A stretch of 61,285 bases of DNA from positions 1 to 61,285 of the forward strand of contig JAYZQJ010000254.1 of assembly GCA_036149055.1 (NCBI GenBank). The letters are read 5' to 3'. The notes under the pieces were generated by a model. The model made no database searches. It had not been told where the DNA came from and saw only the letters and a list, made by a program, of their open reading frames with translations. Shown piece after piece: positions 42,580 to 58,016 of this stretch (within the stretch, counting starts at the first letter, position 1; every line of letters starts with the position of its first letter). A program made the position numbers and the translations under genes. The DNA is from Myxococcota bacterium. GTDB lineage: Bacteria > Myxococcota_A > Polyangia > Polyangiales > Sandaracinaceae.

Positions 42580-43695
42580 ATGGCGCTACCCATCAGCTTT
42601 TTCGAGAAGCTCCCGAAGACCGACCTCCACGTCCACCTCGACGGCTCGCTGCGGCTGGCCACCCTGATCGAGCTGGCGGAGGAGCAGGGCGTCGAGCTGC
42701 CGAGCACCGACCCGCTCGAGCTCCGCCGCAAGCTCCACCTGGGAGAGAACACCGGCTCGCTCGTCGAGTACCTCAAGGCGTTCGAGACCACGCTCAAGGT
42801 GCTGCAGACCGAGGACTCGCTCATCCGCGCGGCCCGCGAGCTCGCCGAGGACGCGGCGGCCGAGAACGTCCGCTACATGGAGGTCCGCTACGCCCCGATG
42901 CTGCACACGCGGCAGGGGCTCCGGCTCACGACCGTGGTCGAGGCGGTGCTCGAGGGCCTGTGGCAGGCGAAGGAGAGCCACGGCATCGAGTCCAACGTCA
43001 TCATCTGCGGCATCCGGAACATCTCGCCGGAGAGCTCGCTCGAGATGGCGCAGCTGGCCGTCGCCTACAAGGGCCGCGGCGTCGTCGCGTTCGACCTCGC
43101 GGGCGCCGAGTACGATCACCCGGCCAAGCACCACCTGCCCGCGTTCCAGCTCGTCCGGCAGAACAACATCAACGTCACGATCCACGCCGGCGAGGCCTAC
43201 GGCCCGGAGTCGATCCAGCAGGCGATCCACGACTGCGGCGCCCACCGCATCGGGCACGGCTGCCGCCTCCGCGAGGACGGCGACCTGCTCCACTACGTCA
43301 ACGACCACCGCATCGCGCTGGAGTGCTGCCCGAGCTCGAACGTGCAGACCGGCGCGGTCCGCGACCTGGCGAGCCACCCGATCAAGCTCTACCACGACCT
43401 CGGCCTGCGGGTGACGGTGAACACCGACAACCGCCTGATCACCGACACCACGGTCAGCAACGAGCTCTGGCTCACCCACACCCAGGTCGGCCTGAGCCTC
43501 GACGAGATCAAGCGCATCGTGCTCAACGGCTTCAAGGCCGCGTTCCTGCCCTTCCACGTGAAGCAGGCGTGGCTGCGCCGCGTGTCCAAGGAGCTGTCGC
43601 GCTTCCACGAGGACGGCGCCGTCGACGCGCCCGACACCGACAGCCACGAGCCGCTCCCGCGCGCGCCGGAGCCGGCCGACGAGGCGACCGTCTGA
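42580..43695 (+). CDS. add: Adenosine/adenine deaminase
   Basis: PKTDLHVHLDGS, HAGE, RIGHG, CPSSN, NTDN. Confidence 0.93.
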   Translation: MALPISFFEKLPKTDLHVHLDGSLRLATLIELAEEQGVELPSTDPLELRRKLHLGENTGSLVEYLKAFETTLKVLQTEDSLIRAARELAEDAAAENVRYMEVRYAPMLHTRQGLRLTTVVEAVLEGLWQAKESHGIESNVIICGIRNISPESSLEMAQLAVAYKGRGVVAFDLAGAEYDHPAKHHLPAFQLVRQNNINVTIHAGEAYGPESIQQAIHDCGAHRIGHGCRLREDGDLLHYVNDHRIALECCPSSNVQTGAVRDLASHPIKLYHDLGLRVTVNTDNRLITDTTVSNELWLTHTQVGLSLDEIKRIVLNGFKAAFLPFHVKQAWLRRVSKELSRFHEDGAVDAPDTDSHEPLPRAPEPADEATV

Positions 43696-44408
43696 CGCGG
43701 CTGTTCGACACCCACTGTCACCTCGACTTCGACGCCCTGCGCGAGGACCTCGACGGCGTCGCCCGCCGCGCGCGGGAGGCGGGCGTCGAGCGCGTCCTCG
43801 TCCCGGGCGTGCGCGGCGCCCCCGAGGCGCCCTCGCTCCCCGGCCTCCAGGTCAGCCGCGCCGCGGGCGTGCATCCGATGGCCGCCCACGAGCCCCTCGA
43901 CCTCGACGCCCTCGCGTCGTCGCTCGAGGGCGCGGTCGCGGTGGGCGAGCTCGGCTGGGACGCGCACGTCGAGGCGTCCACCGAGACGCAGGACCGGGTC
44001 GCCGACGCCCAGCTCGCGCTGGCCGCCGAGCGCGGCCTGCCGGTCATCCTCCACGTGGTCGGCCTCCACGGCCACGCGCTCGAGCGCCTCGCCCGCCACC
44101 GCCCAATGCGCGGCGTCGTCCACGCCTACAGCGGCTCGGCGGAGCTCGTGCAGCGCTACGTCTCGCTCGGCCTGCACGTCTCCATCGGCCCGAGCGTGCT
44201 CCGCGAGGGCGCGCGCAAGCCCCTCGAGGCCGCGCGCGCGGTCCCCGCCGACCGCCTCCTGCTCGAGACCGACGCCCCCGATCAGATCGCCGAGCCCGCC
44301 GACGTCCTCCGCGTGGCCGAGGCGGTCGCCGACGCCCGCGGCGAGCCCCTGGAGGTGGTCGCCGAGAGGGCGCTGGAGGCCGGTCTGTCCGTGTTCGGAC
44401 TACGCTGA
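43692..44408 (+). CDS. tatD: TatD family DNase
   Basis: FDTHCHLD, GVHP, VGELGWD, VILH, VVHAYSG, LLETDAPD; apparent CTG start overlapping the add stop. Confidence 0.88.
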   Translation: MTRLFDTHCHLDFDALREDLDGVARRAREAGVERVLVPGVRGAPEAPSLPGLQVSRAAGVHPMAAHEPLDLDALASSLEGAVAVGELGWDAHVEASTETQDRVADAQLALAAERGLPVILHVVGLHGHALERLARHRPMRGVVHAYSGSAELVQRYVSLGLHVSIGPSVLREGARKPLEAARAVPADRLLLETDAPDQIAEPADVLRVAEAVADARGEPLEVVAERALEAGLSVFGLR

Positions 44409-44525
44409 GGGTTGGAAGCGCCCCGCGATGGCGGTACCCTCTCCGTGGTCGCGGAGGTGGGTTCGCCTGCCGATGAGGGAGTCGGACGACGGCTCTCCAG
44501 CGGGGGATGAGGGGTCGCGACCGCC

Positions 44526-45572
44526 ATGACCGACTCCGCTGGAACGTTGTCCGCGCGATACGACGCGAAGATGTACGAGGTGAGGGCGCTGCGATTCGCG
44601 CGCCGGCGTCTCGGGCGGCCGCTCGAGGTCAACGTCCGACTCCCGGTGCACGGCGTGCCGTATGCGCAGCGGCCGGAGCTGGATGGCGCGTTCAGCGAGG
44701 GCGCTCGGCGCTACCTCGTGGAGGTGAAGGCGCACGCGCTCGATGGCGACGCGGTCGCCAGACAGGAGACGCGGGCTCGGGACCTGGGGTTCGACGCGCT
44801 CGTGCTGATCGCGCCCGGCTTTCGACAGCCCGCGCGAGCGTCGTCCACGACCGCGCTCTGGGCCTTCGAGCCCGACCTCGAGCCCCTCGAGCGGGCCTAC
44901 GCGCGGCCGCTCTCGATCCCGAGCGCGGTGGTGCGGTGGTGGCGCCCGGGAGGGGTCCACTTCCGGTTCACGCTCGCCCGCCGCGGCGGCGCCACGTCCG
45001 CGCGCCGGACGCTGAACCAGGTCGACAAGGGGATCCGGACACGCGAGGCGTTGCGCCGGGAGATCGCGAGGCTGGCCCCGCGCCACGTGCCCGCCTTCGT
45101 GATGTGGTCGCCGACGCGGCTGCTGTTCCCGAAGGACGCCTTCGATCGGCGGAGGCCCAAGCACGTGCGGGAGCGTCCCCTGGTCTTCGACGTGGACGGG
45201 CACGCCATCCATCGCGCCTTCTTCCCGTGCGTCCTCGGAGACGACGGCCTCTGCGCGGACTGCATCGGCTTCGCCCGGGTGCACGCGCGGCGGATCGTCG
45301 CCTGTCTCAGCGCCCACGGGCTCTCGCCCGAGGTGTTCTTCAGCGGGCGGAGCGGCTTCCACGTCTACGCCTTCGCCCGGATCGAGGACGAACGGCGCGC
45401 CGCGATCCTGCGCGACCTGACGCTCGCGCGCGTGATCCACGATGGCGTGATCGCCCACACCCGGGTCCCCATCATCAACCTGCCCGGCTCCCGTCACGGC
45501 GGCACGGGGCTCGAGCTGGCGCGCGTCGAATCGCTCGAGCGCTTCCGGCCCTCCCCGGCGGAGACCGCGTGA
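44526..45572 (+). CDS. PD-(D/E)xK nuclease-like domain fused to archaeo-eukaryotic primase (PriS-like)
   Basis: N-terminal ELDG...LVEVK; C-terminal LVFDVD, C-x7-CxxC zinc segment, FSGRSGFHVY, HDGV...IINLPGSRH. Confidence 0.75.
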   Translation: MTDSAGTLSARYDAKMYEVRALRFARRRLGRPLEVNVRLPVHGVPYAQRPELDGAFSEGARRYLVEVKAHALDGDAVARQETRARDLGFDALVLIAPGFRQPARASSTTALWAFEPDLEPLERAYARPLSIPSAVVRWWRPGGVHFRFTLARRGGATSARRTLNQVDKGIRTREALRREIARLAPRHVPAFVMWSPTRLLFPKDAFDRRRPKHVRERPLVFDVDGHAIHRAFFPCVLGDDGLCADCIGFARVHARRIVACLSAHGLSPEVFFSGRSGFHVYAFARIEDERRAAILRDLTLARVIHDGVIAHTRVPIINLPGSRHGGTGLELARVESLERFRPSPAETA

Positions 45573-46462
45573 GGGATCGGCTGCGACGCAGGATCCTGCG
45601 GGCCGCTTCGACGCCCCGCTCGCTCCGCCAGATCGCGACCGCCGAGCTGCTCCGGCTCGACCACGCCGAGGTCCTGGTGCGTGAGCTGCTCGCGGAGGGC
45701 AGCCTCGTCGAGCGCGCGGACGGCTTCGCGGCCGCGCAGCCTGGGCCTACCCGCCCCGATCGCGCGGCGCTCGAGGAGCGCGCGAGGCACGTCATCGGTC
45801 GCCGCCCCGCTCCGGACCCCGCGCTGGACCAGGTCCACCTCGAGGCGCCGTCCCTCGTGCGCCGGGCCGAGTGGCTGCTGCACACCGAGGACGCGCCCGA
45901 GCGCGACGTGCTCTTCCTCGGTGACGACGACTTCACCTCGCTCCTGGTGGCGGGCTGGGGGCCGGGCCGGGTGGTCGTGGCGGACATCGACCGGCGCGTG
46001 CTCGACGAGGTCGGCGCGCTCGCCGAGGAGCTCGGCGTCGAGGTGGAGCGCGTCCAGCTCGACCTGCGCGAGGCCCGCGGCGGCCTCCCTCCCGAGATCG
46101 CGCGGGTGATGGACCTCGTGGTGACCGATCCGCCGTACACCGAGGCGGGGGCGCTCTGGTTCACCGCGTGCGCGTCCGCCGCGCTGCGTCCGCGGCTCGA
46201 GAGCACCCTGGCCATCGCAGTCCCCTGGCTCGTCCGGGAGCACTGGTCCGACGAGCTGCTCGCGGCCGTGCAGGCTTGGTTGCTGCGGCGAGGCTTCGTG
46301 CTCACGGACGTGCTGAGGAGCTTCGGGCGGTACCACTCCGACGACGCGATCCAGTCCTCGCTCGTGGTGGCTCGTCAGGCCGCGCTCGACGCGACGTCCG
46401 ATCCCTTCGAGGGGCTGGACCCCGCGCGGCTCTACACCCGCGCGGCGAGGGGGACGCCGTGA
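45569..46462 (+). CDS. BpsA/DUF43-like aminopropyltransferase (branched-chain polyamine synthase family)
   Basis: RRPAPDPALDQ, FLGDDDFTS, ADIDRR, DLR, TDPPYT; N-terminal wHTH-like segment; GTGA overlap. Confidence 0.8.
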   Translation: MRDRLRRRILRAASTPRSLRQIATAELLRLDHAEVLVRELLAEGSLVERADGFAAAQPGPTRPDRAALEERARHVIGRRPAPDPALDQVHLEAPSLVRRAEWLLHTEDAPERDVLFLGDDDFTSLLVAGWGPGRVVVADIDRRVLDEVGALAEELGVEVERVQLDLREARGGLPPEIARVMDLVVTDPPYTEAGALWFTACASAALRPRLESTLAIAVPWLVREHWSDELLAAVQAWLLRRGFVLTDVLRSFGRYHSDDAIQSSLVVARQAALDATSDPFEGLDPARLYTRAARGTP

Positions 46463-47034
46463 GCGCCGTCGAAGCGCTGCTGGGCCTCGCGCTGGAGGAG
46501 CGCGCCCTCGCGCGGGGGACCCAGGAGGTGATGCGAGCCCTCGAACGCGGCCGTGCGACGATCGTGGTCCACGCGTCCGACGCTCCGTCCGATCTGGTCG
46601 ACCTGATCACGCGCGAGGCGCTGCAGCGGGAGGTCCCGCTCGTGCGGGGGCCCGACCGCGAACGGCTCGGCGCCCTCGCGGGGATCCAGCGGCCCGCGAC
46701 CGTCGTGTCCGTCGGCCGGTTGAAGCAGCGTCGCCGGCTCGCCGAGCTGCTCGGGGCGGCGGAGCCGGACGCGCTGCGGACCCTCGCGGGCCTCCAGCGG
46801 CACCTCCCGCTCGGTGAGGCGAGTCGCGACACCCGGCTCGCCAGAATGAAGAAACACCACGCCGCTCTGGTGGACGGTGAAGACGCCGCCGCGGCGCTTG
46901 GCGCGCTCCTCCAGGAGACGATCGCGCTCGCCAACGCTCACGGTGTCGACCTCCAGGCGGCGCTCGACCGAAGATGGCTCTCGGTGCGGTTCGTGCACGG
47001 CGACAACGGTGATGACCCCGAGGACGAGCGCTGA
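46459..47034 (+). CDS. L7Ae/L30e RNA-binding domain fused to degenerate MazG-like helical domain
   Basis: RGTQEVMRALERGRATIVVHASD...LGALAGI; C-terminal IALANAHGVDLQAAL; GTGA overlap. Confidence 0.7.
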   Translation: MSAVEALLGLALEERALARGTQEVMRALERGRATIVVHASDAPSDLVDLITREALQREVPLVRGPDRERLGALAGIQRPATVVSVGRLKQRRRLAELLGAAEPDALRTLAGLQRHLPLGEASRDTRLARMKKHHAALVDGEDAAAALGALLQETIALANAHGVDLQAALDRRWLSVRFVHGDNGDDPEDER

Positions 47035-48388
47035 GCTGGGGCGCGATCCTCACGCCGCCTCCTGGGCTCGCGTGGTCGCAGCGTACGGGCGGGCGGCCTC
47101 CTACTGGGCGCCCCAGATCCTCCTCCATCATCGGCTCCCGCGGGCCGTGGTGAAGCGCCTCGCCTGGGCGCGGCTGGTGCGGGCGATCCATCACGCGCGG
47201 CGCGCGGTCCCGTTCTATCGCGCGCGATATGACGGGCTCGCCACGCCTCGCGACCGAGCCGACCTCGCGGCGTATCCCCTCCTCTCCAAGGCCGATCTGC
47301 GGGAGGCGGGCGACTCCCTGCTGCGCGACGGGGCCCCGTCCCGCGACCGGCTGTCCGAGCGCAGCAGCAGCGGCTCCAGCGGGAGACCGGTCCGCGTCCT
47401 GTTCGACCCGCTGGCCGAGCTGCCCCGCCGTCTGCAGGAGCTGCGCCTCCTGAGCGCGCACGGCTTCCGTTTGACCGATCGGCAGGTGATCTTCGACGCG
47501 CCGTCGCACATGCCGCCTCGCCCGTTTCTGTTGCAGCGGCTCGGGCTCTGGAGACGCGACCCCTTTCCCTGGGAGAGGCCTCTGGCGGAGAGCCTGCGCT
47601 GGCTCGAGGGGGAGAGGGTCGAGGTGCTGCATGGTGTGTTGTCGAGCATCCGCATGCTGGCGCTCAGCGTGCGCAAGCGAGGCGGGCTCGCCTACCGGCC
47701 CAAGCTGGTCGTGACGAAGGGCGAGCTCCTCGACCCGGGGACGCGACGACTCGTGGAGGACACGTTCGGCTGTCCGCTGGTCGACTACTACGCGACCGAG
47801 GAGGTCGGGATCATCGCCTGGCAGGAGCCGGGCGCGCAGTCCTACCTCGTCGACGAGGATCTGGTCTTCGTCGAGATCGTCGACGAGCGCGGCCAGCCCG
47901 TACCGGACGGCCAGGTGGGCGAGATCGTGGTCTCGAACCTCTATCAGAGGACCATGCCCATCCTGCGCTACCGCACCGGGGATCTCGGGCGCCTCTCGCC
48001 GGAGCGCACGCCCTGGGGGCTCCCCCGGCTGGAGGAGCTGCGTGGGCGGCGCATCGACTGTCTCGTCACGCCGGACGGGCGCGTACGGCACCCGTTCACG
48101 CTGATGGCGGCGCTGGAGGACGTGCCCGAGATCGAGGCGTTCCGGTTGGAGCAGACCGCCGTCGACGAGCTCACGGCGTGGGTTCGCTGGGAGCCCGCCG
48201 GTCGAGAGCCTCCGGCGGCGCGCGTCGTGGAGCGCCTGAGCGCGGTGCTCGGGGACGGGATGCAGGTCCGCGTGCGCTCGATGCCGGAGGACGAACGGTT
48301 CGAGCCGGGGAAGAGCCACCTCGTGAAGGTCTTGCCCGAGCGATCGGTGGACGCGCTTCGGCTGGGAGACCTCGAGATCGAGCTCTGA
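47012..48388 (+). CDS. Adenylate-forming ligase, PaaK/CapK/F390-synthetase family
   Basis: VPFYR, SSSGSSG P-loop, YYATEEVG, MPILRYRTGDLG, LRGRR. Confidence 0.85.
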   Translation: MTPRTSAELGRDPHAASWARVVAAYGRAASYWAPQILLHHRLPRAVVKRLAWARLVRAIHHARRAVPFYRARYDGLATPRDRADLAAYPLLSKADLREAGDSLLRDGAPSRDRLSERSSSGSSGRPVRVLFDPLAELPRRLQELRLLSAHGFRLTDRQVIFDAPSHMPPRPFLLQRLGLWRRDPFPWERPLAESLRWLEGERVEVLHGVLSSIRMLALSVRKRGGLAYRPKLVVTKGELLDPGTRRLVEDTFGCPLVDYYATEEVGIIAWQEPGAQSYLVDEDLVFVEIVDERGQPVPDGQVGEIVVSNLYQRTMPILRYRTGDLGRLSPERTPWGLPRLEELRGRRIDCLVTPDGRVRHPFTLMAALEDVPEIEAFRLEQTAVDELTAWVRWEPAGREPPAARVVERLSAVLGDGMQVRVRSMPEDERFEPGKSHLVKVLPERSVDALRLGDLEIEL

Positions 48389-48408
48389 GCAGCGCGCGCG
48401 ACGCAGCC

Positions 48409-49467
48409 TCAGAGATCGGCCTCGTGGGCCTTGTGGTCTGCGCCGAGGCCGAGGCGCCTGGCGATCCGCTGTCGGACGCGCCAGTAGGCGCGGAACGCGG
48501 GGGACGCGCCGGGGAGCCAGACCTCGGTCATGCGCTCGCGCAGGAAGGCGTCGGCGCGAACGGGGCGGAGCCGAGGGCGCCCTCGGACGAGAGCGGCGGG
48601 CGGCGCGAGGAGCACGTCGGGGCGGGCGTTGGCGAAGAAGACCACGGCGTAGCGATCCGCGCGCTTCGCCTCGTCCGGCGTGGCCACCCGGTGCAGGCTC
48701 CCGGGGATCGCGAGGTCCGTGAGGCGCTCCATCATGTCGGCGACCGTGACCACCATGGCCTCGTCGAAGCCGCGCAGCGCCTGCCACTGTCCGTCGCGGG
48801 TGCAGACCTCGAGGCCCGGCGCGGTCGCGGGAGGGAGCACGCCGAAGAGCCCCGCGCCGGTGTGCTCGACGGCCCGCGCCTGCCCCGCGTCGATCGGGCC
48901 GGACAGCGCCGGGTAGCGAATCAGCCGGAGCGTGTGCGCGCCGCCGCGCGCGAGGTCCGCGAACGTGCCAGCCGGCAGCTCCAGCGTCTCCGCGAGGATC
49001 TGGGCGATCGTGTCGGCGCAGCGCTCGAAGCGCCGAAAGGCGGCCTCGAGGACCGCGCGGTGGGGATCGAACCCGGGCGGCCACGGGTTGTCGGGCTCGT
49101 AGAACGACCGCAGCGCGCGGGGGGTGTCGGCGGGGGCGGAGCGCCCGAGATGCCAGAGCTCCTTCAGGTCCGGACGTCGCCCGCGCAGCGCGCGCTCGAT
49201 GCCGTAGGGCATGTGACCGCGAGGGCCCGCGGCGCACGCGCGCTTCTGCTCGGCGGGGAGGGCGAAGAGGGCGCGACTCGCCTCGTCGATGCGGGCGCGC
49301 GTCGCCGCGTTCAGGCCGTCGTCGTCGACGGCGAGGAAGTTGAACCGCTCCAGGCTTCGCTTCGCCGTCGCCACCACGGCCCTGCGCGCGCGGCTGTTGC
49401 CGGAGCGGTACGCGTCGAGGTCGAGGCGGGGCACGTCGCCCTGCGACACGATCCTGAGGCTCCCCAT
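48409..49467 (-). CDS. IPNS-family Fe(II)/2-oxoglutarate oxygenase with H-x-G motif (candidate halogenase)
   Basis: DIOX_N (LFALPAEQK, DLKE, PDNPWP), LRLIRYP, EHTGAG, GLEV, HRV, RYAVVFF. Confidence 0.85.
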   Translation of the reverse strand: MGSLRIVSQGDVPRLDLDAYRSGNSRARRAVVATAKRSLERFNFLAVDDDGLNAATRARIDEASRALFALPAEQKRACAAGPRGHMPYGIERALRGRRPDLKELWHLGRSAPADTPRALRSFYEPDNPWPPGFDPHRAVLEAAFRRFERCADTIAQILAETLELPAGTFADLARGGAHTLRLIRYPALSGPIDAGQARAVEHTGAGLFGVLPPATAPGLEVCTRDGQWQALRGFDEAMVVTVADMMERLTDLAIPGSLHRVATPDEAKRADRYAVVFFANARPDVLLAPPAALVRGRPRLRPVRADAFLRERMTEVWLPGASPAFRAYWRVRQRIARRLGLGADHKAHEADL

Positions 49468-49516
49468 GCCGAAGCATGTCTCGCCTTCGCGGCGCGATCA
49501 CCTGTAGAGTCGAGTC

Positions 49517-50233
49517 GTGGAGCGCGCTGGCTCGGTCCTGGCCTTCGACGCCGACGACACCCTCTGGCACGACCTGCCGCGCTACCTCGGACTCGAGGCG
49601 CGCTTCGCCGAGCTCCTCGCCGAGCACGGTGAGCCCGACGCGCTGCGCGCCCGGCTGGACGAGATCGAGATCCGGAACCTCGAGCGGTACGGGTACGGCC
49701 CGAAGGGGTTCCTGCTCTCGATGATCGAGACCGCCATCGAGGTCAGCGACGGTGCGATCGACGGGCACGCGATCCGTCGGATCCTCGAGTGGGCCGAGGT
49801 GCTGACCGAGCAGCCGGTCGAGCTCCTGCCGGGGGTCGCGGAGACGCTCTCGGCGCTGTCGGAGCGCCATCGACTGTGGCTCGTCACCAAAGGCGACCTC
49901 TTCGACCAGGAGGCGAAGATCGCCTCGAGCGGGCTCGCGGATCTCTTCGAGCACATCGAGATCGTCAGCCAGAAGGACGTCGACGTGTACCGAACGATCC
50001 TCACCCGGCGCGGCGTGGCGGTCGAGGACTGGGTGATGATCGGCAACTCGATCCGCTCGGACGTGCTCCCCGCTCTGGCGCTGGGCGCCCGCGCCGTGCA
50101 CGTGCCGCATGACGAGAGCTGGCATCACGAGGAGGCGTCCATCGACGCGGCGTCGTCGGAGCGCCTGCTCCGCGTCGGTGACGTGAAAGATCTGTTGTCC
50201 GCGGAGGTTGGCCGTTGGTTGAGCGAGAAGTGA
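49517..50233 (+). CDS. HAD-superfamily hydrolase (nucleotidase-like)
   Basis: FDADDTLW, VTKGD, MIGNSIRSDV. Confidence 0.9.
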   Translation: MERAGSVLAFDADDTLWHDLPRYLGLEARFAELLAEHGEPDALRARLDEIEIRNLERYGYGPKGFLLSMIETAIEVSDGAIDGHAIRRILEWAEVLTEQPVELLPGVAETLSALSERHRLWLVTKGDLFDQEAKIASSGLADLFEHIEIVSQKDVDVYRTILTRRGVAVEDWVMIGNSIRSDVLPALALGARAVHVPHDESWHHEEASIDAASSERLLRVGDVKDLLSAEVGRWLSEK

Positions 50234-50970
50234 GCGTCGTCCTGTCGGGGTCCTTTCGGAAGCACCTCGCCGAGATTCACCGGTGCATCCGTGCGTTCGA
50301 CGAGCTGGGGGTGCGCGTCGTCGCGCCTCGGCTCGCCACCGCGAAGAACCCCGGCGAGGAGTTCGTGATCCTCGACGGAGACGAGACGGACGATCCGCGC
50401 ACGCTCGAGCAGGCGCACCTGGACGCGATCTCCGAGGCGGACGCGCTCTTCCTGGTCAGCGTGGACGGCTACGTCGGCGCGTCCGCGTCGCTCGAGGTCG
50501 GCTGGGCGCTCTCGCGAGGAAAGAGGGTGTTCGCGCTCGAGGCGCCGAAGGACGTCACGCTGCGCGCCTTCGTGGAGGCGGTGGGCGAGCCGGCCGAGAT
50601 CGCCCTGGCCCTCCGCGCCGCCACCGAGCCTGCCCTCGACGCGTTGGGCCCCGGCGCCTCGCTCGCGCAGGTGCAGGCGACGTCACACGCGCTCGTGGTG
50701 AAGCGCGGCTTCGACGACGAGACCCCGATGGAGATCGTGCTCCTCATGGTCGAGGAGGTCGGCGAGCTGGCCAAGGCGGTGCGCAAGGAGGTGGGGCTGA
50801 AGGTGGACGCCGCCAAGCTCGACGAGATCCCTCGGATCCGCACCGAGCTCGCCGACGTGTTCATCTACCTCCTCCACCTCGCCGACCGATGTCACGTGGA
50901 TCTGTTCGAGGCCTGGATCGAGAAGGAGCGGCTCAACGAGACGCGGTTCTTCGAGCGCGCCGGCTCATGA
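50230..50970 (+). CDS. Nucleoside 2-deoxyribosyltransferase-like domain fused to MazG (RS21-C6/dCTPase-like) pyrophosphatase
   Basis: LSGSFR...ISEADAL...GYVGASASLEVGWA; EEVGELAKAVRK...ELADVFIYL; GTGA overlap. Confidence 0.8.
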   Translation: MSVVLSGSFRKHLAEIHRCIRAFDELGVRVVAPRLATAKNPGEEFVILDGDETDDPRTLEQAHLDAISEADALFLVSVDGYVGASASLEVGWALSRGKRVFALEAPKDVTLRAFVEAVGEPAEIALALRAATEPALDALGPGASLAQVQATSHALVVKRGFDDETPMEIVLLMVEEVGELAKAVRKEVGLKVDAAKLDEIPRIRTELADVFIYLLHLADRCHVDLFEAWIEKERLNETRFFERAGS

Positions 50971-51741
50971 GTCGGCGCACCACCGGCGCAGCGTCCGGAG
51001 GTTGTGCGAGGCCCGGGCGAGCACGTCGGAGGCGAGCGGGAGCGCCGGGTCGAAGCGGGTGACGGGAGGCTCGAGGTCCTGCGCGTCGTCGTACACGACG
51101 CCCTCGATCGCGTGGTTGACGGCGATGGTGCTGTCGACGCTGCGGACCTGGGGGCCCAGCCGGCGTGCGAGGAAGACCTCGCGCGGATGCGTGAGCCCGA
51201 GCAGGTGCAGCGGCTTGTCCGTGCGACGCGTCAGGCGCTCCAGGACGACCAGCCGCGCCAGCGCGGGGTCCCGGACGCCGAGCTCGGCGCAGAACGCGCG
51301 CGGCACGATCCCCTTGGCGATCCCGATCACCGCGACCGACGGGTGACTCGCGAGCCCATCGAAGCAAGTGAGGAAGTCTCCCGGGGTCGCCCCCTCCGAG
51401 ACCGCGTGCCACCGGACGCCCTCGGCTCCGGGCCGGGCGAGCCACTCCCTCGCCAGCGCCAGCGTCGCCTCACCATCACCGTCGACCTCCGGGAGCTGGA
51501 CCTCCGTCGCGCCCACCCGGGCCGCCAGCTCGAGCGTCTCGACGAAGCCGAGGAGCTCGCGCCCGGCGAGGTGCGCTTCGTAGGCGCCGTTGTTGAGCAC
51601 GACGTGGGTGCCGCTCTCCGAGAGCTCGCGAAAGGCCCCGGCGTACTCGTCGTCGCGCGCGAGGTGGGCGAGCGCCATCGCCATCGCTCCGCGCGAGAGC
51701 TCGCGGGTGTGCGGGATGGGCGCGGTCGCGCAGAGCCTCAT
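50965..51741 (-). CDS. Phage-type TGT/DpdA-like TIM-barrel protein
   Basis: ALAHL, VLNNGAYE, LPEV, AVSEG, IGI, HLLG, RSVDST in the TGT-family motif order. Confidence 0.6.
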   Translation of the reverse strand: MRLCATAPIPHTRELSRGAMAMALAHLARDDEYAGAFRELSESGTHVVLNNGAYEAHLAGRELLGFVETLELAARVGATEVQLPEVDGDGEATLALAREWLARPGAEGVRWHAVSEGATPGDFLTCFDGLASHPSVAVIGIAKGIVPRAFCAELGVRDPALARLVVLERLTRRTDKPLHLLGLTHPREVFLARRLGPQVRSVDSTIAVNHAIEGVVYDDAQDLEPPVTRFDPALPLASDVLARASHNLRTLRRWCADS

Positions 51742-52484
51742 CTTCCGGCCCCCGACGCGCTCAGCCCCGCGCGCGCGACCTCGGCGACCCGAGCGCGGAG
51801 CGCCTCCCGCGTGGTCGCCCCGGCGCGCGCGATGCGCTCGTGGTCGAGCTCGACCTCGTCCGCGGCGTCGGTCACCAAGCAGATGGCCGCGTAGCGGAGC
51901 CCCAGCTCGTTGGCGAGCGCCGCCTCGCGCGCGATCGTCATCCCCACGACGTCACCGAGGGTTGCGTGGAATCGAAGCTCCGCGCGCGTCGGGTAGCGCG
52001 GGCCTTCCACGCTCACGTAGACCCCGCCCTCGTGCACCGTCGACGCGTCGAGCCCGACGAGGAGCTCACGGGCGAGCGGCGCATCGAACGGCGCGTGCAT
52101 CGAGGTGTGCACGACGCGGTCCGAGTGGAACGTGAGGCTGGGGCCGAGCTCCACGAAGTCGTCGAGGATCACCAGGTCCCCGACCGCGAGGCCCTCGCGG
52201 AGCGCGCCCGCGGACGCGAGCGCCACCACCGCGTCGACGCCCTCCTCGCGCATCGCGTGGAGCAGGGCGCGGGGGTCCAGCCGATGCGGAGGCATGCCGT
52301 GCCCCCTCCCGTGCCGCGCGGCCACGAGCGCCCCGGGGGCGGCCGCGAGCTGGTCCCCTCCCACGTCGCCCCAGGGCGTCCGCCGCGGGAGCGGGTCGCC
52401 CTCGTCGCAGTCGAAGCCCGTCCCGAGAATCAGCCCGATCACTCCTCCATGCGACCACATCGGCTCGAGGTCGCCAAGGCTCAT
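51738..52484 (-). CDS. 5'-methylthioadenosine/purine nucleoside phosphorylase (MTAP family)
   Basis: IGLILGTG, TPWG, RHG..H..PPH, EGPRYPTRAE, VVGMT, ELGLRYAAICLVTD. Confidence 0.88.
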   Translation of the reverse strand: MSLGDLEPMWSHGGVIGLILGTGFDCDEGDPLPRRTPWGDVGGDQLAAAPGALVAARHGRGHGMPPHRLDPRALLHAMREEGVDAVVALASAGALREGLAVGDLVILDDFVELGPSLTFHSDRVVHTSMHAPFDAPLARELLVGLDASTVHEGGVYVSVEGPRYPTRAELRFHATLGDVVGMTIAREAALANELGLRYAAICLVTDAADEVELDHERIARAGATTREALRARVAEVARAGLSASGAGR

Positions 52485-55162
52485 CGCGGCTCGGCGAACG
52501 TCCAGTCGGCGGCCTCACCGCATCGGTGCAGCCTCGGGCGCAAGAAGAGCGCGTCGCCCTCGGGCGGACCCTCGGCCCACTGGATCGGCCACGCCGACAT
52601 CACGAGCGCGACCTCCTGGCCGACCCACCGCTCGAGCGACAGATCGCGCAGGTCGCGCGGCCCCTCCCCGGGCTCGAGGATCTCGCGCCGGAGGCGCCAC
52701 ATCACGCCGCCGCGCTCCACTCCGACCAGGGCGCCCATGGCGCGACCGGCGTGGCGCGTGTCCAGGCTGATGGCGAGGCAGCTCGCGTCGGCGGGCACCC
52801 TGAAGCTCAGCTTCACCTGGGCTGGCGTCTGCTCGGGCGGAAGCGAGGTGAGCGCGAGCTCGTCGCCGCTCACCCGGGCGGCGCCTCGGACGACCTCGTG
52901 ATCGCCATCCTGGAAGGCGTGGATCAGGCTCACGGGCGCGCTGCACGGCTCGATCCGCGGTCGGTGGAGGAACGGGCGCAGGGGCCCCTCCTCGACCTCG
53001 AAGTGGAGCCCGAGCATCACGAAGCGGAGCGCCCACGGATCCAGCGGGATCTCGATCGGCTGGCGCCACTCGCCTCCTCGCAGGGGACGGTCGACGATGT
53101 CGGTCCGCTGCGCCGCGTCCCAGACCTCCGCGCGCACCCGGCCCCGCCCCTCACCCTCGGCGCCGATCTCCGCGACCAGGCAGGCGCCGCGGCACGGCCG
53201 GAGCGTGAAGTACGCGCCGCGGTTCGGAGCGGCCGGGCCCCCGGGGGGGTGTGGGGTGAGCCAGAGCCGGGCGCCGTCCCGCTCGCCGCCGACGTGATGC
53301 AGCAGCGCGTCCGACAGGGTGATCGGCGTGCTGGGCGTGCACTCGAAGGGCGGCGGGGGGCTCACCGCGCCGCCCGGTCGGAGCTCCGTGATCCGCCGGA
53401 CGCGCACGCGGGCTCGCGTCGGACCCCCCTCGGACGGGGCGAGCTGAAGGACGAACCGCTCGGCGTCGTGGTACCGCCCGGCCGGCATCCCGGTGATCCA
53501 CCGTTGCTCCGCGCGCACCGGGTGGACCGGCACCAGGAGCGTCATGGCGCCTCCCCAGCGGGGCACGGCGACCTCGAAGCGCGGCGTCACGACGCGCGCG
53601 TGGCTTCGCATCTCCACGAACACCCGCGGCGCGAGCGGCCTCAGCGCGTCCCAGCCCACCGGCTCCAGGTCGAGCTCGACGGCCAGGACGCTGTCGCCGA
53701 GGACGGGGCGGTCGAGCTGCACTCGGACCTCACCGGGCACGTCGACGAGCTCGTCCGGCGCGGTCCGGATCGGGACTCGATGCGCCGTGGGCGGCGCGTC
53801 GGCGATCCGGCGACGCGTGATCCAGAGATCGGGGCCGAGCCGGGCGACGGGCTCGTACCGCTCGGCGCGCAGCAGGAGGTCGGGGCCGAAGTGCAGCGCT
53901 CCCCAGCCCTCCGTCGAGGACGCGCGCCAGCGCTGCAGCGCCCACGGGCAGTCGGCCTCCTCGAGCCGTCGAGCGAGTCGCGCTCCACCGTCTCGGTCGC
54001 GGAAGGGATCGAGCGGCCCGGGGCGCTTCAACGCCGCGCGCAGCGAGGGCTCGCCGGAGGGCGCGACGACGCACGTGTCCTCGGGGATGTGCCGGCTCGC
54101 CCACGCCGCCGCTCTCGCCTCGTCGGTGTACGGCGGCAAGCCGGCCCCCGCCTCGAGCGGGGCGCGGGCGGTCAGCCGCGGGAGCGCGACCGGCCACCCG
54201 AACATCAGGAGCAGCAGCGCGCTGGCGAGCAACGCCGACACTCCGCGGTGACGGGAGAACGTGCGCGCGGCCGTCACGGCGAGGGCGGCGGCGGCCACCG
54301 ACACGGCGGCCAGCTGATGAGTCGCCCGAGCGTCGAGCAGCGCGGTCGCGCCCACCGCGACCGCGACCGCGAGCCACGTGCGCTCGGACGGATGCAGGAG
54401 CCCTCGGCGGTGCAGGGCGAGGCCGGCCGCCGCCACCAGCCCGATCCACGTGGCGATGCCCGCGACCCGGCCGCTCTCCAGCGGGGGGAGGGCGATCCAG
54501 TCGTGGTCCCAGCGGAGCGCCAGCCCGAGGAGCCACCAGCCGCCCACCACCGCCGTGGCCGCTCCCGCCGTCAGGGCGGCGGCGGCGTCGCGTCGCCCGG
54601 GGCGCGTGAAGAAGATCGCCGCGCACCCTCCAGCGACACCGAGCCATGCGCTCGGCGTCCACGAGACGGCCAGGCCCGCGAGGAGGCTCCCGAGGACCGC
54701 GCGCCGTCGATCCGGGCGCTCGGACGACAGGGCGCCGAGCGATCCCGCGGTGAGCAGCCAGCCGGGGGCGATGGCCTCCTCCGTGAGCGCGAGGGCGGCG
54801 AGCGCGGGGAAGATGGCGGAGCGCTCCTCTCGGGTCCTGGCGAGCGGGAGCGATCGCGCCAGGGCGGCGGCGAGCGCGATGCAGCCCCACGAGAAGAGCA
54901 ACGACTGTTGCGAGGCGTCGGCGCCGCTCCAGACGGCGACGGCCGCCCACGTCTGACGCAGCGCGCCCTCGCCCGACGCCGGCGCGACGAGGTCGCCGCG
55001 CAGCGTCGCTTCGCCGAGCTCGAGCAGCCGACGCCTCCCGGCGTCTCGCAGCGGCTCCGCGAACACGGGGCCGGTGAGGTGAGCGAGCCAGCGCCCGACG
55101 AGCGTGAGCGCGACGAGCACCCAGCCGACCAGCTCCCACGCCAGCGCGCCGCGACGGCTCAC
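52481..55162 (-). CDS. Large multi-TM protein with C-terminal beta-sandwich domains (GT-C-like architecture), paralogue 2
   Basis: About ten hydrophobic segments, then a soluble region with LxxWxGxxVxL repeats; GTGA overlap at 55159-55162. Confidence 0.6.
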   Translation of the reverse strand: MSRRGALAWELVGWVLVALTLVGRWLAHLTGPVFAEPLRDAGRRRLLELGEATLRGDLVAPASGEGALRQTWAAVAVWSGADASQQSLLFSWGCIALAAALARSLPLARTREERSAIFPALAALALTEEAIAPGWLLTAGSLGALSSERPDRRRAVLGSLLAGLAVSWTPSAWLGVAGGCAAIFFTRPGRRDAAAALTAGAATAVVGGWWLLGLALRWDHDWIALPPLESGRVAGIATWIGLVAAAGLALHRRGLLHPSERTWLAVAVAVGATALLDARATHQLAAVSVAAAALAVTAARTFSRHRGVSALLASALLLLMFGWPVALPRLTARAPLEAGAGLPPYTDEARAAAWASRHIPEDTCVVAPSGEPSLRAALKRPGPLDPFRDRDGGARLARRLEEADCPWALQRWRASSTEGWGALHFGPDLLLRAERYEPVARLGPDLWITRRRIADAPPTAHRVPIRTAPDELVDVPGEVRVQLDRPVLGDSVLAVELDLEPVGWDALRPLAPRVFVEMRSHARVVTPRFEVAVPRWGGAMTLLVPVHPVRAEQRWITGMPAGRYHDAERFVLQLAPSEGGPTRARVRVRRITELRPGGAVSPPPPFECTPSTPITLSDALLHHVGGERDGARLWLTPHPPGGPAAPNRGAYFTLRPCRGACLVAEIGAEGEGRGRVRAEVWDAAQRTDIVDRPLRGGEWRQPIEIPLDPWALRFVMLGLHFEVEEGPLRPFLHRPRIEPCSAPVSLIHAFQDGDHEVVRGAARVSGDELALTSLPPEQTPAQVKLSFRVPADASCLAISLDTRHAGRAMGALVGVERGGVMWRLRREILEPGEGPRDLRDLSLERWVGQEVALVMSAWPIQWAEGPPEGDALFLRPRLHRCGEAADWTFAEPR

Positions 55163-57981
55163 GGCGCCGCCCCGCACTCGTGAAGCGCGAGCGTGAGCAC
55201 CTCGGCGGGCTCTCCGCTCGTCGCGGCGGCGGGCAGGTCGACGACGAGCTCCACCCGTCGCCCGGTCCAGTCGTGGAGTCCCAGCTCGGAGCGCCACGTG
55301 TCCCCGCCGGCGATCTCGCCTTCGTGGAGCACCTGCTCCTGCCCTCCCTCCGCGACGCGGACCATGACCACGCGCGGGCTCGAGCGCGGGGCCCGGGCTC
55401 CGAGGGTCGCGCAGGTGTTCGGCGCGACGTGAAACGCGCGCCGCAGCGTCCCACCTCGCCAGCCGACCTCGATCGTCTCGGACGAGGCGCGCGCCGCGCC
55501 GCTCAGGGTGACTCGACCGGACGCGATCCCCTCCGGAAGCGAGCGCCGCGCGGTGCACCGCTCCAGCCTCGGCTCGATGAGCAGCACCTCGCGAGCGGGG
55601 TCGACGCCGGCGCTCCCCAGCACACCCACCCGCAAGAGGATGGGTCGCCCGCGCCACCGCTCGAGAGAGAGCTCCAGCGCGGAGCGCGAGCCGTCGCGGG
55701 GGACGGTGGTCAGGCCGAGTCGAGCCCGGGCCGCGCCCTCGATGGCGTGTACCTCGACGTCCATCGTCGGCGCGGCCGCGTCGCCGGGGGGCGCCCCCTC
55801 CTCGAACTCGGCCATGAAGCAAGTGCCGCTGCATGGGCGCAGCGGAAAGAGCAGCTCGCCCAGCGGCTGTCCGGGGGGCCTGGGCCGGAGGTGCAGCTGG
55901 CTGTCGTCCGCGTCCGGGCTCAGCTGTCGAGGCCAGGCGGCCGAGGAGCGCAGCTGGTCCACCAGCCTCCGATAGGCGTGGCACGGCTCATCGTCATCGC
56001 GCGGCGCCGCGGGTGGCGAGAGTCGCTCGAGCGACCGAACCTCGAGCGACACCGCGTCGGGCGCGAAGACCCCGGGCCCGGTCACCCGGAGCCGCAGCGA
56101 AGACGCGCGACGCGGCTCTCCCGCCCTGGGGATCCCAGCGATCCACCGCAGCTCGGCGGTGTCGGGATCCGGGCTCAGGAAGACGACGCTCGGGCGCCCG
56201 ACCTCCATGTGGTGCATCTGCTTCCAGCCGGTGACCGGAGCGCCGCCGGTCTCGAAGCGGTAGTCGATGCGCGGCTGCCCTCCGGCGAACGTCCGCCAGC
56301 GCGGGAAGTCGAGCACGTACGCGAGCCTCACCAGCTCTTCGCCGCTCACCGGAGGAGAGAGAGGCAGGACGAGGTCTGCCGGCAGCGTCAGCTCGGTCGC
56401 CTGCGGCTCGGGGACGTCGATGGGCGCGCGCCGCGCCTGCTCGCGGCTCCCTCGTCGCTCGAGCTCGAAGAGCGCGAAGCCGAGCCGGCGTCGCGCCCGA
56501 TGCTGCTCCGCGAGGGCGACGAAGTCCTCGCCGAAGAACCAGCTCTCGCCGGGCTCGTCGATCGTGCCGGCGTAGTAGAGGAACCGCTCGCAGTCCCAGC
56601 GCTCCACGTCGCGGGCGAGCTCGGCTTGCATGTCGGGGGTCCACCGCATCGCGAGCTCGGTCGGCCCTCGGAGGCCGGAGAGCGCGTGCGCGACGGTCAG
56701 GTGCGGAGACATCCCCACGCAGCGAGCGCCCCGTCGTCGCTCTCCCCACGCCCACCGCGCCGCCACCCGGTGGTCGGTGGAGAAGCCGCGGTCGGCCCGC
56801 TTCAGGCCGGTCGCCACGCGGAAGGCGTCGGCGAACACCGTGGGGCTCTGGCTGAACGCGGCCGGGTAGGTGCCGAACCACCCCAGCATCGCGGCGGCCG
56901 CGACCACCCCCGCGCCGAGCCGCGTCCAGGAGCGGCCCTGCCCGGCGCCGGCCGCGACGAGGACCAGCACGCCCAGGGCGGGGAGGATGGCCATGAACAC
57001 GTGCCCGGCGTCGCTCCGGATGAGCCCGAACGCCGCCGCGGGGAGCGCGCCCCCCAACCAGACCGCGGCGCTCCGGTCCGCGGATCCAGCGCGCGTGATC
57101 GAGGGCGCGATCAGCGCGCCTCCGGCGACCACGAGGGCGATCACGTTCGACGGCGGGACGTCGACCTCCCAGCTGCTCACCATGTTGGCGGCGTAGGCGC
57201 TCGCCAACCGCCGCTGCCCCTCGAGGTAGTCGAGCGGGTGGAACCCGAGCCACGCGCCCACGGCGATCACCAGGGCGGCGCCCACCGCCAGACAGACGAC
57301 GAAGCGCGCAGGGCGACGGACCGCCTCGAGCGGCTCGTCGCGGTGGCGCGCTCGGACGATGACCTCGACCACGAACACCCCGGCGAAGGAGAGCGCCGCG
57401 ACGCTCGCCCGGTCGAACGAGAGCAAGAGCGCCCCCAGGGTGGCGGCCGCGGCGACGCCAGCGAACACCCATCGCCGTCGAGGGGCGTCGCGCACCGCGC
57501 TCTCGGGCGGGGCGTACGCGAGGACGATCCCGAGGGACAGCACCGCGCGAAAAGTGGCGGGCCCCGAGCCGTTCGTGAGCGTCGCCAGCGCCGCGAGCGC
57601 GCCCACTCGCGCCCACCCCGACGGCACGAAGCGGAGGGTCGCCGTCGCGGCGATCGCGAGGCTGGCCGCGTGGAACAGCAGGTAGATCCAGGCGAGGGTC
57701 CCCGCGGCCCAGCCCGACGACAGGAGGGACGCGAGGTACGCCACCCCCTGCCAGAGCGGACCGCGCGGATAGTCGAAGTCGCGCCCCGACCACTCGCCGT
57801 GCGACGCTCGAAGCGCGAGCTCGAGGCGCCACGCCTGGTCGTAGAGATCCTCCTGCAGCGCCTCGAAGTCCCAGAGGGCGGCCTGGGTGTAGGCGGTCGC
57901 GACGGTCTGGGCGACCAGGTACGCGCCTACGAGCCAGAGGGCCCGACGCGCCAGGGTGCTCTCGGACGACGGGACGCCCAC
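55159..57981 (-). CDS. Large multi-TM protein with C-terminal beta-sandwich domains (GT-C-like architecture), paralogue 1
   Basis: First loop EDLYD...GRDFDYPRGPLW, many TM helices, C-terminus similar to the neighbour; GTG start approximate. Confidence 0.65.
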   Translation of the reverse strand: MGVPSSESTLARRALWLVGAYLVAQTVATAYTQAALWDFEALQEDLYDQAWRLELALRASHGEWSGRDFDYPRGPLWQGVAYLASLLSSGWAAGTLAWIYLLFHAASLAIAATATLRFVPSGWARVGALAALATLTNGSGPATFRAVLSLGIVLAYAPPESAVRDAPRRRWVFAGVAAAATLGALLLSFDRASVAALSFAGVFVVEVIVRARHRDEPLEAVRRPARFVVCLAVGAALVIAVGAWLGFHPLDYLEGQRRLASAYAANMVSSWEVDVPPSNVIALVVAGGALIAPSITRAGSADRSAAVWLGGALPAAAFGLIRSDAGHVFMAILPALGVLVLVAAGAGQGRSWTRLGAGVVAAAAMLGWFGTYPAAFSQSPTVFADAFRVATGLKRADRGFSTDHRVAARWAWGERRRGARCVGMSPHLTVAHALSGLRGPTELAMRWTPDMQAELARDVERWDCERFLYYAGTIDEPGESWFFGEDFVALAEQHRARRRLGFALFELERRGSREQARRAPIDVPEPQATELTLPADLVLPLSPPVSGEELVRLAYVLDFPRWRTFAGGQPRIDYRFETGGAPVTGWKQMHHMEVGRPSVVFLSPDPDTAELRWIAGIPRAGEPRRASSLRLRVTGPGVFAPDAVSLEVRSLERLSPPAAPRDDDEPCHAYRRLVDQLRSSAAWPRQLSPDADDSQLHLRPRPPGQPLGELLFPLRPCSGTCFMAEFEEGAPPGDAAAPTMDVEVHAIEGAARARLGLTTVPRDGSRSALELSLERWRGRPILLRVGVLGSAGVDPAREVLLIEPRLERCTARRSLPEGIASGRVTLSGAARASSETIEVGWRGGTLRRAFHVAPNTCATLGARAPRSSPRVVMVRVAEGGQEQVLHEGEIAGGDTWRSELGLHDWTGRRVELVVDLPAAATSGEPAEVLTLALHECGAAP

Positions 57982-58016
57982 GTAGTCATTCGTACCACGT
58001 GGCGTCTCTGGATGAG

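Follow-up and report, generated by a model that had tools for sequence, protein, structure and literature searches.

A candidate Fe(II)/2-oxoglutarate radical halogenase with a His-Thr-Gly iron site in a gene island of a Sandaracinaceae myxobacterium

A 61,285-nucleotide stretch of DNA from a member of the Sandaracinaceae (Myxococcota; assembly GCA_036149055.1, contig JAYZQJ010000254.1; the whole stretch is referred to as the window) carries a gene for an Fe(II)/2-oxoglutarate (2OG) enzyme in which a Gly stands at the position of the iron-binding Asp. We conclude that this gene probably encodes a radical halogenase (chlorinase). The conclusion draws on sequence, conservation, fold, phylogeny and gene linkage; the candidate is supported because the H-x-G motif is found throughout its clade together with intact His ligands and 2OG-binding residues, and because its sister clade appears to be kin to the halogenase AdaV. 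That the window enzyme is a halogenase and also acts on a nucleotide-type substrate, a (deoxy)nucleoside monophosphate ((d)NMP) or a nucleotide-linked sugar, is a more tentative proposal, which we place a little short of an even chance. A nucleotide is favoured because NDT or NDT-MazG genes are linked to both subclades of the clade, and because of the kinship with AdaV and the further nucleotide enzymes encoded in the window. To our knowledge, only a handful of Fe/2OG halogenase families have been characterised, and we know of none but the AdaV-type enzymes that chlorinate nucleotide sugars, a reaction useful for nucleoside drugs.

Replacement of the carboxylate ligand by Gly or Ala leaves a site for chloride, and the chlorine then rebounds to the substrate radical (accessible parts of PMC13489965 and PMC12766721). 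The available text of PMC13489965 further describes 2His-1Gly/Ala as the motif of all reported Fe/2OG halogenases, with two predictions from the motif confirmed, and reports that the G117D/E substitutions switch BtnX to hydroxylation.

The iron site and its conservation

The open reading frame (ORF; 48409-49467, minus strand) is stop-free and intact and codes for 352 residues. Within it we recovered the EHTGAG motif named in an original prediction made from the DNA letters alone, together with the His in HRV (H259) and the Arg in RYA (R272). The protein matched DIOX_N (PF14226, E 3.9e-13) and 2OG-FeII_Oxy (PF03171, E 5.4e-7), both passing the Pfam cut-off, and the folds nearest to its AlphaFold2 model (pLDDT 82.8) were thymine 7-hydroxylase, TraH and 3OOX (Z about 32; for 5C3P, Z 32.4 and a root-mean-square deviation (rmsd) of 2.5 over 291 aligned residues). 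Pfam and the model agree on the double-stranded β-helix (DSBH)/cupin fold of the 2His-1Gly/Ala radical halogenases. Gly204 aligned opposite the facial-triad Asp of 3OOX, TraH and ancestral EFE, and with Gly at this position the enzyme falls outside the HxD dioxygenases (IPNS-like or 3OOX-like). The genome also encodes an ordinary HED paralog.

A first alignment of 154 proteins from searches held 21 with HxG, 130 with HxD, two with HxN and one with a gap; with further searches the set grew to 22 HTGAG proteins, some of them near-duplicates, and 28 HTGI(Q/N) proteins. Conservation was scored over a non-redundant set of 15 HTGAG orthologs with 30-76% pairwise identity. D100, K102, R181, Y185, H202-T-G-A-G206, G209, H259, R272, A274 and F278 are invariant in all 15, both iron-binding His (H202, H259) and the replacing G204 among them, and V276 is kept in 14. 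Close homologues, to which the original prediction had pointed, conserve H-x-G without exception, and the private mutation that it had feared, with all near homologues HxD, was not found. The 2OG-binding residues Y185 and R272 are likewise unchanged, yet the Ser of the canonical R-x-S motif, present in 94% of 227 HxD relatives, is Ala in all 15 orthologs, which counts against the main reading. No new invariant Asp, Glu, His or Gln that could act as a substitute metal ligand was seen on the strands around the iron site in the HTGAG alignment. Three changes accompany Asp to Gly in the HTG clade: Thr to Gly at H+7 (Thr in 99% of the HxD enzymes), R-x-S to R-x-A, and Pro to Val at position 276 (Pro in 81%). 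Between the HTGAG genes of two near-identical loci, L030 and L031, we counted 122 synonymous and 75 non-synonymous codon differences.

All 22 HTG rows formed a single clade (support 98) in a FastTree phylogeny of 152 rows. The same clade was recovered with IQ-TREE (LG+G4, quick search without bootstrap) from 65 hand-picked rows (13 HTGAG, 16 HTGI, 36 HxD) after the motif columns had been removed, with SH-aLRT values of 90 for HTG and 98 each for HTGAG and HTGI. HTGAG and HTGI(Q/N) are sister subclades, and in this tree the HTG clade is sister to 3OOX-like HED enzymes; AdaV and the DAH/AerH-like enzymes stood outside the tree comparison. The HTGAG clade and its gene cluster appear undescribed. 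In the literature searched, outside which most subscription journals lie, we found no paper on Hoch_1673, D0LWX6 or myxobacterial nucleotide halogenases, and a halogenase together with NDT, MazG and 2OG was met only in cyanophage papers that, judged by their abstracts, are unrelated.

Relation to AdaV

The AdaV chains 7V56, 7V57 and 7W5S read HSGIQMLGLQ at the iron site and the HTGI sister clade reads HTGIQLLGLQ. The sister clade carries the whole signature H-S/T-G-I-Q-x-x-G-x-Q (H194, G196, Q198, G201 and Q203 in AdaV, counted from the Arg177 named in PMC11186838) and looks AdaV-like at its active site. None of the 227 HxD relatives has Gln at H+4 or H+9 or Gly at H+7; 22 of them have Val at 276. 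AdaV scored 103 bits against a profile of 36 HTG proteins (26 HTGI, 10 HTGAG). Against an HxD profile of equal size (36), which scored 3OOX, thymine 7-hydroxylase and IPNS higher, AdaV was outside the best 60 matches (below 78.6 bits).

The sister clade includes Hoch_1673 (D0LWX6 of Haliangium ochraceum; P0161/P0271 in our set), which the accessible part of the atlas of Kipouros and Chang (PMC13489965) places in the same cluster as AdaV, cluster 17 with six rows, as a member joined by one edge. Like the window enzyme, Hoch_1673 has H-T-G, Gly at H+7, R-x-A and Val at the Val269 position, and in two genomes (G559 and G695) its close relatives have the same NDT-MazG neighbour as the window enzyme. 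It differs in reading HTGIQ, is 27% identical to the window enzyme and is a halogenase by prediction only; the two HTGI loci seen also differ from the window in being without PaaK, BpsA and GT-C genes. In the atlas source table, which gives no sequences, Hoch_1673 is by row order the only myxobacterial PF14226 entry in the part accessible (29 of the 39 rows for PF14226, and 13 places for Myxococcota out of 19), and 'Sandaracin' occurs 0 times in the accessible table. DAH/AerH-like enzymes (atlas cluster 6, PF14226) match both Pfam domains of the window enzyme and have Gly or Ala at the site, but are plant, fungal and cyanobacterial and fall in a cluster separate from AdaV and Hoch_1673. Shared ancestry of the HTG clade with AdaV is a simpler account than convergence, and an origin of HxG independent of AdaV is weakened by atlas cluster 17, the shared motif and the profile scores.

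Several observations weigh against extending this kinship to the window enzyme and to a nucleotide substrate. Its motif, HTGAGLFGVL, keeps Gly204 and Gly209 but departs from the AdaV signature, with no Gln equivalent to Gln198 or Gln203; the HTGAG subclade has Gly at the first of these positions and Leu, Ile, Met or Thr at the second. A profile built from HTGAG proteins only gave AdaV 51 bits. In phmmer searches, the window enzyme matched AdaV at 29.9 bits (E 3.8e-6; range 4e-6 to 1e-4), far more weakly than it matched the HxD protein 3OOX (Caulobacter CC_0200; E 1e-36), its closest solved sequence, with which it also shares the DLKE, LRxxxYP, HRV and R motifs, and the AdaV chains were not among the best 50 fold matches listed for its model. 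Judged from the 29.9 bits, the window enzyme is unlikely to reach the identity of at least 30% to AdaV used as the family cut-off (available text of PMC11186838). Because both Gln are absent and the score against AdaV is weak, the window enzyme is, on its sequence, not a member of the AdaV family.

Of the nucleotide-binding residues of AdaV, Arg177 aligned with R181, and Asp106-x-Lys108 and Phe271/272 are matched, by motif or register, by D100-x-K102 and F278. All of these, however, also occur in 94-97% of the HxD relatives and are not diagnostic for a nucleotide, a further point on the contrary side. The equivalences Arg265/R272, Val269/V276 and Phe271/F278 are by register only, from the Arg265 segment and Phe271, and the register of Val269 and Arg265 leans on the distal His of AdaV, which we take to be His252. 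With the AdaV/AdeV family the window enzyme thus shares the IPNS-like fold, H-x-G, G201 (G209) and Arg177 (R181), and by register the three residues just named. It differs in being myxobacterial where the family is actinobacterial, and in its partners, which are NDT(-MazG), PaaK-like, BpsA-like and GT-C-fold genes; hisG- or priA-like genes of adechlorin/pentostatin type (types as in the accessible part of PMC13055916) were absent among the Pfam/NCBIfam ORF-scan matches of the island. AdaV acts on dAMP, and CtNTH and VaNTH on dGMP (accessible parts of PMC11186838 and PMC12766721); by inference, the window enzyme may work like AdaV. The halogenase of the original prediction is supported as a candidate, since the whole clade keeps HxG along with its His ligands and 2OG residues and the sister clade is kin to AdaV; the absence of both AdaV Gln tells against it.

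Gene linkage, substrate and competing readings

We compared five independent HTGAG loci: the window, L023 (genome G002), L024+L025 (G014), L030/L031 (counted once) and L034, which is cut by a contig end. In G014 the HTGAG gene is split over two contig ends (C176 and C56; L024 and L025), and P0281 is apparently its full-length form. NDT or NDT-MazG genes were found in four of the five HTGAG loci and in both HTGI loci, counts in which related genomes are not independent and genomes are incomplete. Two distinct forms of the NDT domain are met in the HTGAG loci, and in L023 and L024 the NDT gene lies directly next to the enzyme gene. Across the 401-genome class sample, NDT-MazG occurred in three genomes, the window's and the two with HTGI genes (G559 and G695), always adjacent to the HTG gene; the latter two copies are 48-53% identical to the window's and abut the HTGI gene. 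NDT-MazG is a partner common to the two subclades. A methyltransferase gene lies beside the NDT-MazG/HTGI pair in both genomes, and a HAD gene follows the HTGI gene in one. The two loci, L065 (8372-11873, plus strand) and L066 (9461-12678, minus strand), form a compact operon of methyltransferase, NDT-MazG and HTGIQ genes (plus HAD); in L065 the HAD gene, whose orthology to the window HAD is not established, directly follows the HTGI gene. With its full AdaV motif, the L065/L066 HTGIQ enzyme is a stronger nucleotide-halogenase candidate than the window's.

The neighbours named in the original prediction (a HAD phosphatase, NDT-MazG and an adenylating ligase) are all present, but the NDT domain of the window's fused protein scores below the Pfam cut-off (E 0.0024), and the HAD and NDT-MazG genes are transcribed divergently from the window enzyme; both points count against the nucleotide. 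So do two partners that point to small acids, the PaaK-like ligase, which is the most constant partner of the HTGAG enzyme, and a Rieske oxygenase present in three of the five HTGAG loci, the window not among them.

It is unlikely, but a serious alternative, that the enzyme is a radical halogenase with a non-nucleotide substrate. This could be a small carboxylic acid or, supplied by the PaaK-like ligase, the adenylate or thioester of such an acid; it could also be an amine aminopropylated by the BpsA-like protein. The ligase (orthologs 46-49% identical) lies beside the gene in five of five HTGAG loci and occurs with it in the same three of 32 family genomes, and it was not seen beside the two HTGI genes. 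Both AdaV-type Gln are lost, leaving an Ala-Gly loop after Gly204. BpsA_C is encoded in four of the five loci (relatives in L023, L024, L030 and L031), L034 instead has an AdoMet decarboxylase gene directly downstream, and the window holds an MTAP-like gene. Moreover, AspX and BtnX are 2His-1Gly enzymes acting on free acids (available text of PMC13489965). The NDT-domain gene, kept in most HTGAG loci in either form, and the further nucleotide enzymes of the island (MazG, HAD, TGT-like, MTAP-like) argue the other way. Of the nucleotide or small acid first proposed, the nucleotide is therefore indirectly supported, by the NDT genes, and the small acid keeps the support of the ligase.

Rather less probable is an active 2OG oxygenase without halogenase activity, in which water or a substrate phosphate or carboxylate fills the open site and the reaction is hydroxylation, desaturation or cyclisation. 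We regard it as the main risk to the halogenase reading because the AdaV Q203A/V269A variant, in a reviewer's words in the accessible files of PMC11186838, gains hydroxylation, which counts against that reading. The equivalent of Gln203, a residue tied to the chemoselectivity of AdaV, is lost in the window enzyme, the nearest folds are those of thymine 7-hydroxylase, TraH and 3OOX, and both AdaV and CtNTH are described, in the text available, as hydroxylating in a side reaction. Conversely, the HTGAG alignment offers no new ligand-type residue around the site, Gly is fixed across deep divergence, and all reported HxG/A Fe/2OG enzymes cited in the accessible part of PMC13489965 are halogenases; in the review literature looked at, we found no confirmed HxG enzyme that does not halogenate.

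It is very improbable that the protein has lost catalysis, whether as a pseudoenzyme that binds substrate or as a decayed copy. Both the Asp and the Ser of R-x-S are replaced, the HED paralog is kept in the genome, and the atlas, in its accessible part, also lists JMJD7 isoforms that we read as seemingly false positives; but the two His ligands, Tyr185 and Arg272 never vary, the frames are intact in all full-length loci with mostly synonymous change, and the AdaV-like sister clade has made the identical Gly and Ala changes.

A single base separates GGC from GAC, yet there is practically no chance that Gly204 reflects faulty sequencing or a mutation private to this gene: Gly is present in all four members of the 90% cluster of the window protein (the three others, on 19, 3 and 1 contigs, differ only at residue 13, 53 or 347), in the independent metagenome contig L033 (one codon, 347, differs) and in the 22 HTGAG and 28 HTGI proteins, and its codon is GGC in seven related loci and GGA in L065. 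One contig of sequencing run X2 covers 44-59 kb of the window. Other strains carry insertions, one of 3 bases at the AEP/BpsA junction (window 45569) and one of 19 bases that separates the ligase gene further from the HxG gene (about 48394).

The HTGAG gene was confined to the three family genomes, with no further genome among 400 of the class, where the best six other matches were all HxD; a housekeeping role was rejected on this count. HTGI genes occurred in two genomes of the 401-genome class sample, and a phylum-wide search with an HTGI profile matched 62 of 401 genomes, the best 15 loci all being HED. The titled records with HTGAG are Myxococcota metagenome-assembled genomes, which by itself would make a Polyangiales myxobacterium the probable host; HTGI proteins also occur outside the phylum (P0156 and P0172, with source names Ktedonobacteraceae and Winogradskyella). 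Phage carriage was set aside, as viral contigs held no HTGAG relative and the two viral matches to the HTGI profile were HED; a plasmid search gave no match for the HTGI protein or NDT-MazG. Among 24 listed sequencing runs, 17 hold at least half of the window's words. Those labelled by habitat are seawater, estuary, cold-seep, marine and invertebrate-gut metagenomes, one of which may be the source sample; because the samples holding this DNA are marine, chloride would be plentiful.

As a halogenase, the window enzyme would bind Fe through His202 and His259, with the third site left open for chloride by Gly204, and 2OG through Tyr185 and Arg272. By the mechanism of the class, a chloro-ferryl species would abstract H from an unactivated C-H and Cl would rebound. 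MazG may convert (d)NTP to (d)NMP or clear a chlorinated triphosphate; the HxG enzyme would chlorinate the sugar of the nucleotide; NDT, HAD and the phosphorylase may strip base or phosphate; and the PaaK-like ligase and the BpsA-like alkyltransferase may tailor the product, which would be exported or handed to the GT-C-fold transferases. The product would most likely be a chlorinated nucleotide-derived compound, and possibly a cell-surface one. In a more specific version, which we consider improbable, the product of the island is a chlorinated pentose destined for the cell surface: chlorination of the (d)NMP sugar and release of the base by NDT would yield a chloro-deoxypentose phosphate, and the unit, tailored by ligase and alkyltransferase, would be attached by the AftA/ArnT-like GT-C-fold proteins to a glycan or lipid of the surface. 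Were this true, a halogenated surface glycoconjugate would be built through nucleotide chlorination, and AdaV-type chemistry would originate in a broader, non-antibiotic lineage. More generally, the approximately 15 HTGAG and 28 HTGI sequences bridge AdaV and ordinary HxD oxygenases. They differ naturally at second-sphere positions linked to chlorination versus hydroxylation (Gln198, Gln203, Val269 and R-x-S), and such a series makes the control of halide rebound testable. From the conserved cluster we would expect marine and other myxobacteria to make a chlorinated metabolite or surface structure that has yet to be described.

The island and its other genes

In the same-genus genome G001, the matches to tatD (to about window 44353) and to tag (from 58026) lie about 120 bases apart, and the 13.6-kb island is absent at this site. 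Its genes are listed in Table 1.

Table 1. Features of the island, in window positions
Feature	Positions	Strand	Evidence or remark
Island between tatD and tag, about 13.6 kb, ends approximate	44410..58010		comparison with G001
PriS/AEP-primase-like C-terminal part; N-terminus PD-(D/E)XK nuclease-like by eye only	44526..45572	+	NCBIfam PriS models E 3e-6, below cut-off
BpsA_C-domain S-adenosylmethionine (SAM)/decarboxylated SAM (dcSAM)-dependent N-alkyltransferase, predicted; GDDD and DPPY motifs	45569..46462	+	PF01861 E 1.6e-25
L7Ae-like domain; short helical tail at the C-terminus resembles MazG by eye only	46459..47034	+	PF01248 E 7.8e-15
PaaK-like adenylate-forming ligase, convergent with HxG gene; 47012 is a chosen start	47012..48388	+	ortholog comparison
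Candidate radical halogenase, Fe(II)/2OG, IPNS-like DSBH fold, HTGAG subclade	48409..49467	-	H202-T203-G204, H259, R272
Codons CAC ACC GGC (His202-Thr203-Gly204)	48856..48864	-	read 48864-48856
HAD phosphatase, divergent from HxG gene	49517..50233	+	below-cut-off matches to YjjG/pyrimidine 5'-nucleotidase models
Fusion of an NDT-like N-glycosidase domain and a MazG pyrophosphohydrolase, one copy in the genome	50215..50970	+	Pfam (NDT domain below cut-off)
TIM-barrel resembling TGT/DpdA (base-exchange fold), nearest to clusters of phage proteins	50965..51741	-	ESM Atlas features 0.96-0.97, TM 0.76-0.91
MTAP-like nucleoside phosphorylase	51738..52484	-	PF01048 E 6e-31; TIGR01694 E 1e-45, below cut-off
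893-residue membrane protein, paralog of the 55159..57981 protein	52481..55162	-	without Pfam match
Membrane protein of about 940 residues: GT-C-like N-terminal half, CBM-like jelly-roll C-terminal domains	55159..57981	-	model pLDDT 74.5

The AEP/PriS-like, BpsA_C and L7Ae genes (44526-47034, plus strand) form an apparent operon, a combination seen only at this locus, which might be a separate nucleic-acid-acting module; the AEP/PriS-like and L7Ae-domain genes were not found in the other HxG loci compared, and the TGT/DpdA-like barrel was absent from the five related genomes searched. A class I methyltransferase is encoded in four of the five HTGAG loci, the window being the exception. A flippase-like gene follows the HxG enzyme in L030/L031, and identity between L030 (8952-12231) and L031 is 75-85% in the Rieske, HxG and flippase-like genes but 94-97% in the flanking genes, suggesting module exchange between the two.

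Pentostatin inhibits adenosine deaminase. The adenosine deaminase gene and tatD (42580-44408) were considered as cluster members and rejected, since both fall outside the island and keep their synteny in relatives that lack it. An anti-phage system was likewise set aside: PADLOC gave only a weak mad2 methyltransferase match for the BpsA-like proteins. No sigma-70-like promoter was found. Contigs of an RNA run lie on parts of the island, their origin from transcripts not being established, and none of the long pieces listed covers the HxG gene.

Large membrane proteins are encoded in four of the five HTGAG loci. The model of the 55159-57981 protein, which has no Pfam match (PMT_2 was a lead for one ortholog), resembled ArnT (Z 14.6, rmsd 6.5, 368 residues aligned), AftA (Z 13.8, rmsd 5.7, 408 aligned) and STT3 (Z 12.9) in its helical domain, with high rmsd; a Foldseek likeness to Cry/Vip proteins was dismissed (TM 0.1, jelly-roll domains only). 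No polyprenyl-phosphate sugar transferase was seen in the island. GT-C-like membrane proteins are not exclusive to the island, because further paralogs of about 900 residues, a family without a Pfam model, are encoded elsewhere in the genome (G000, contigs C10, C137 and C229).
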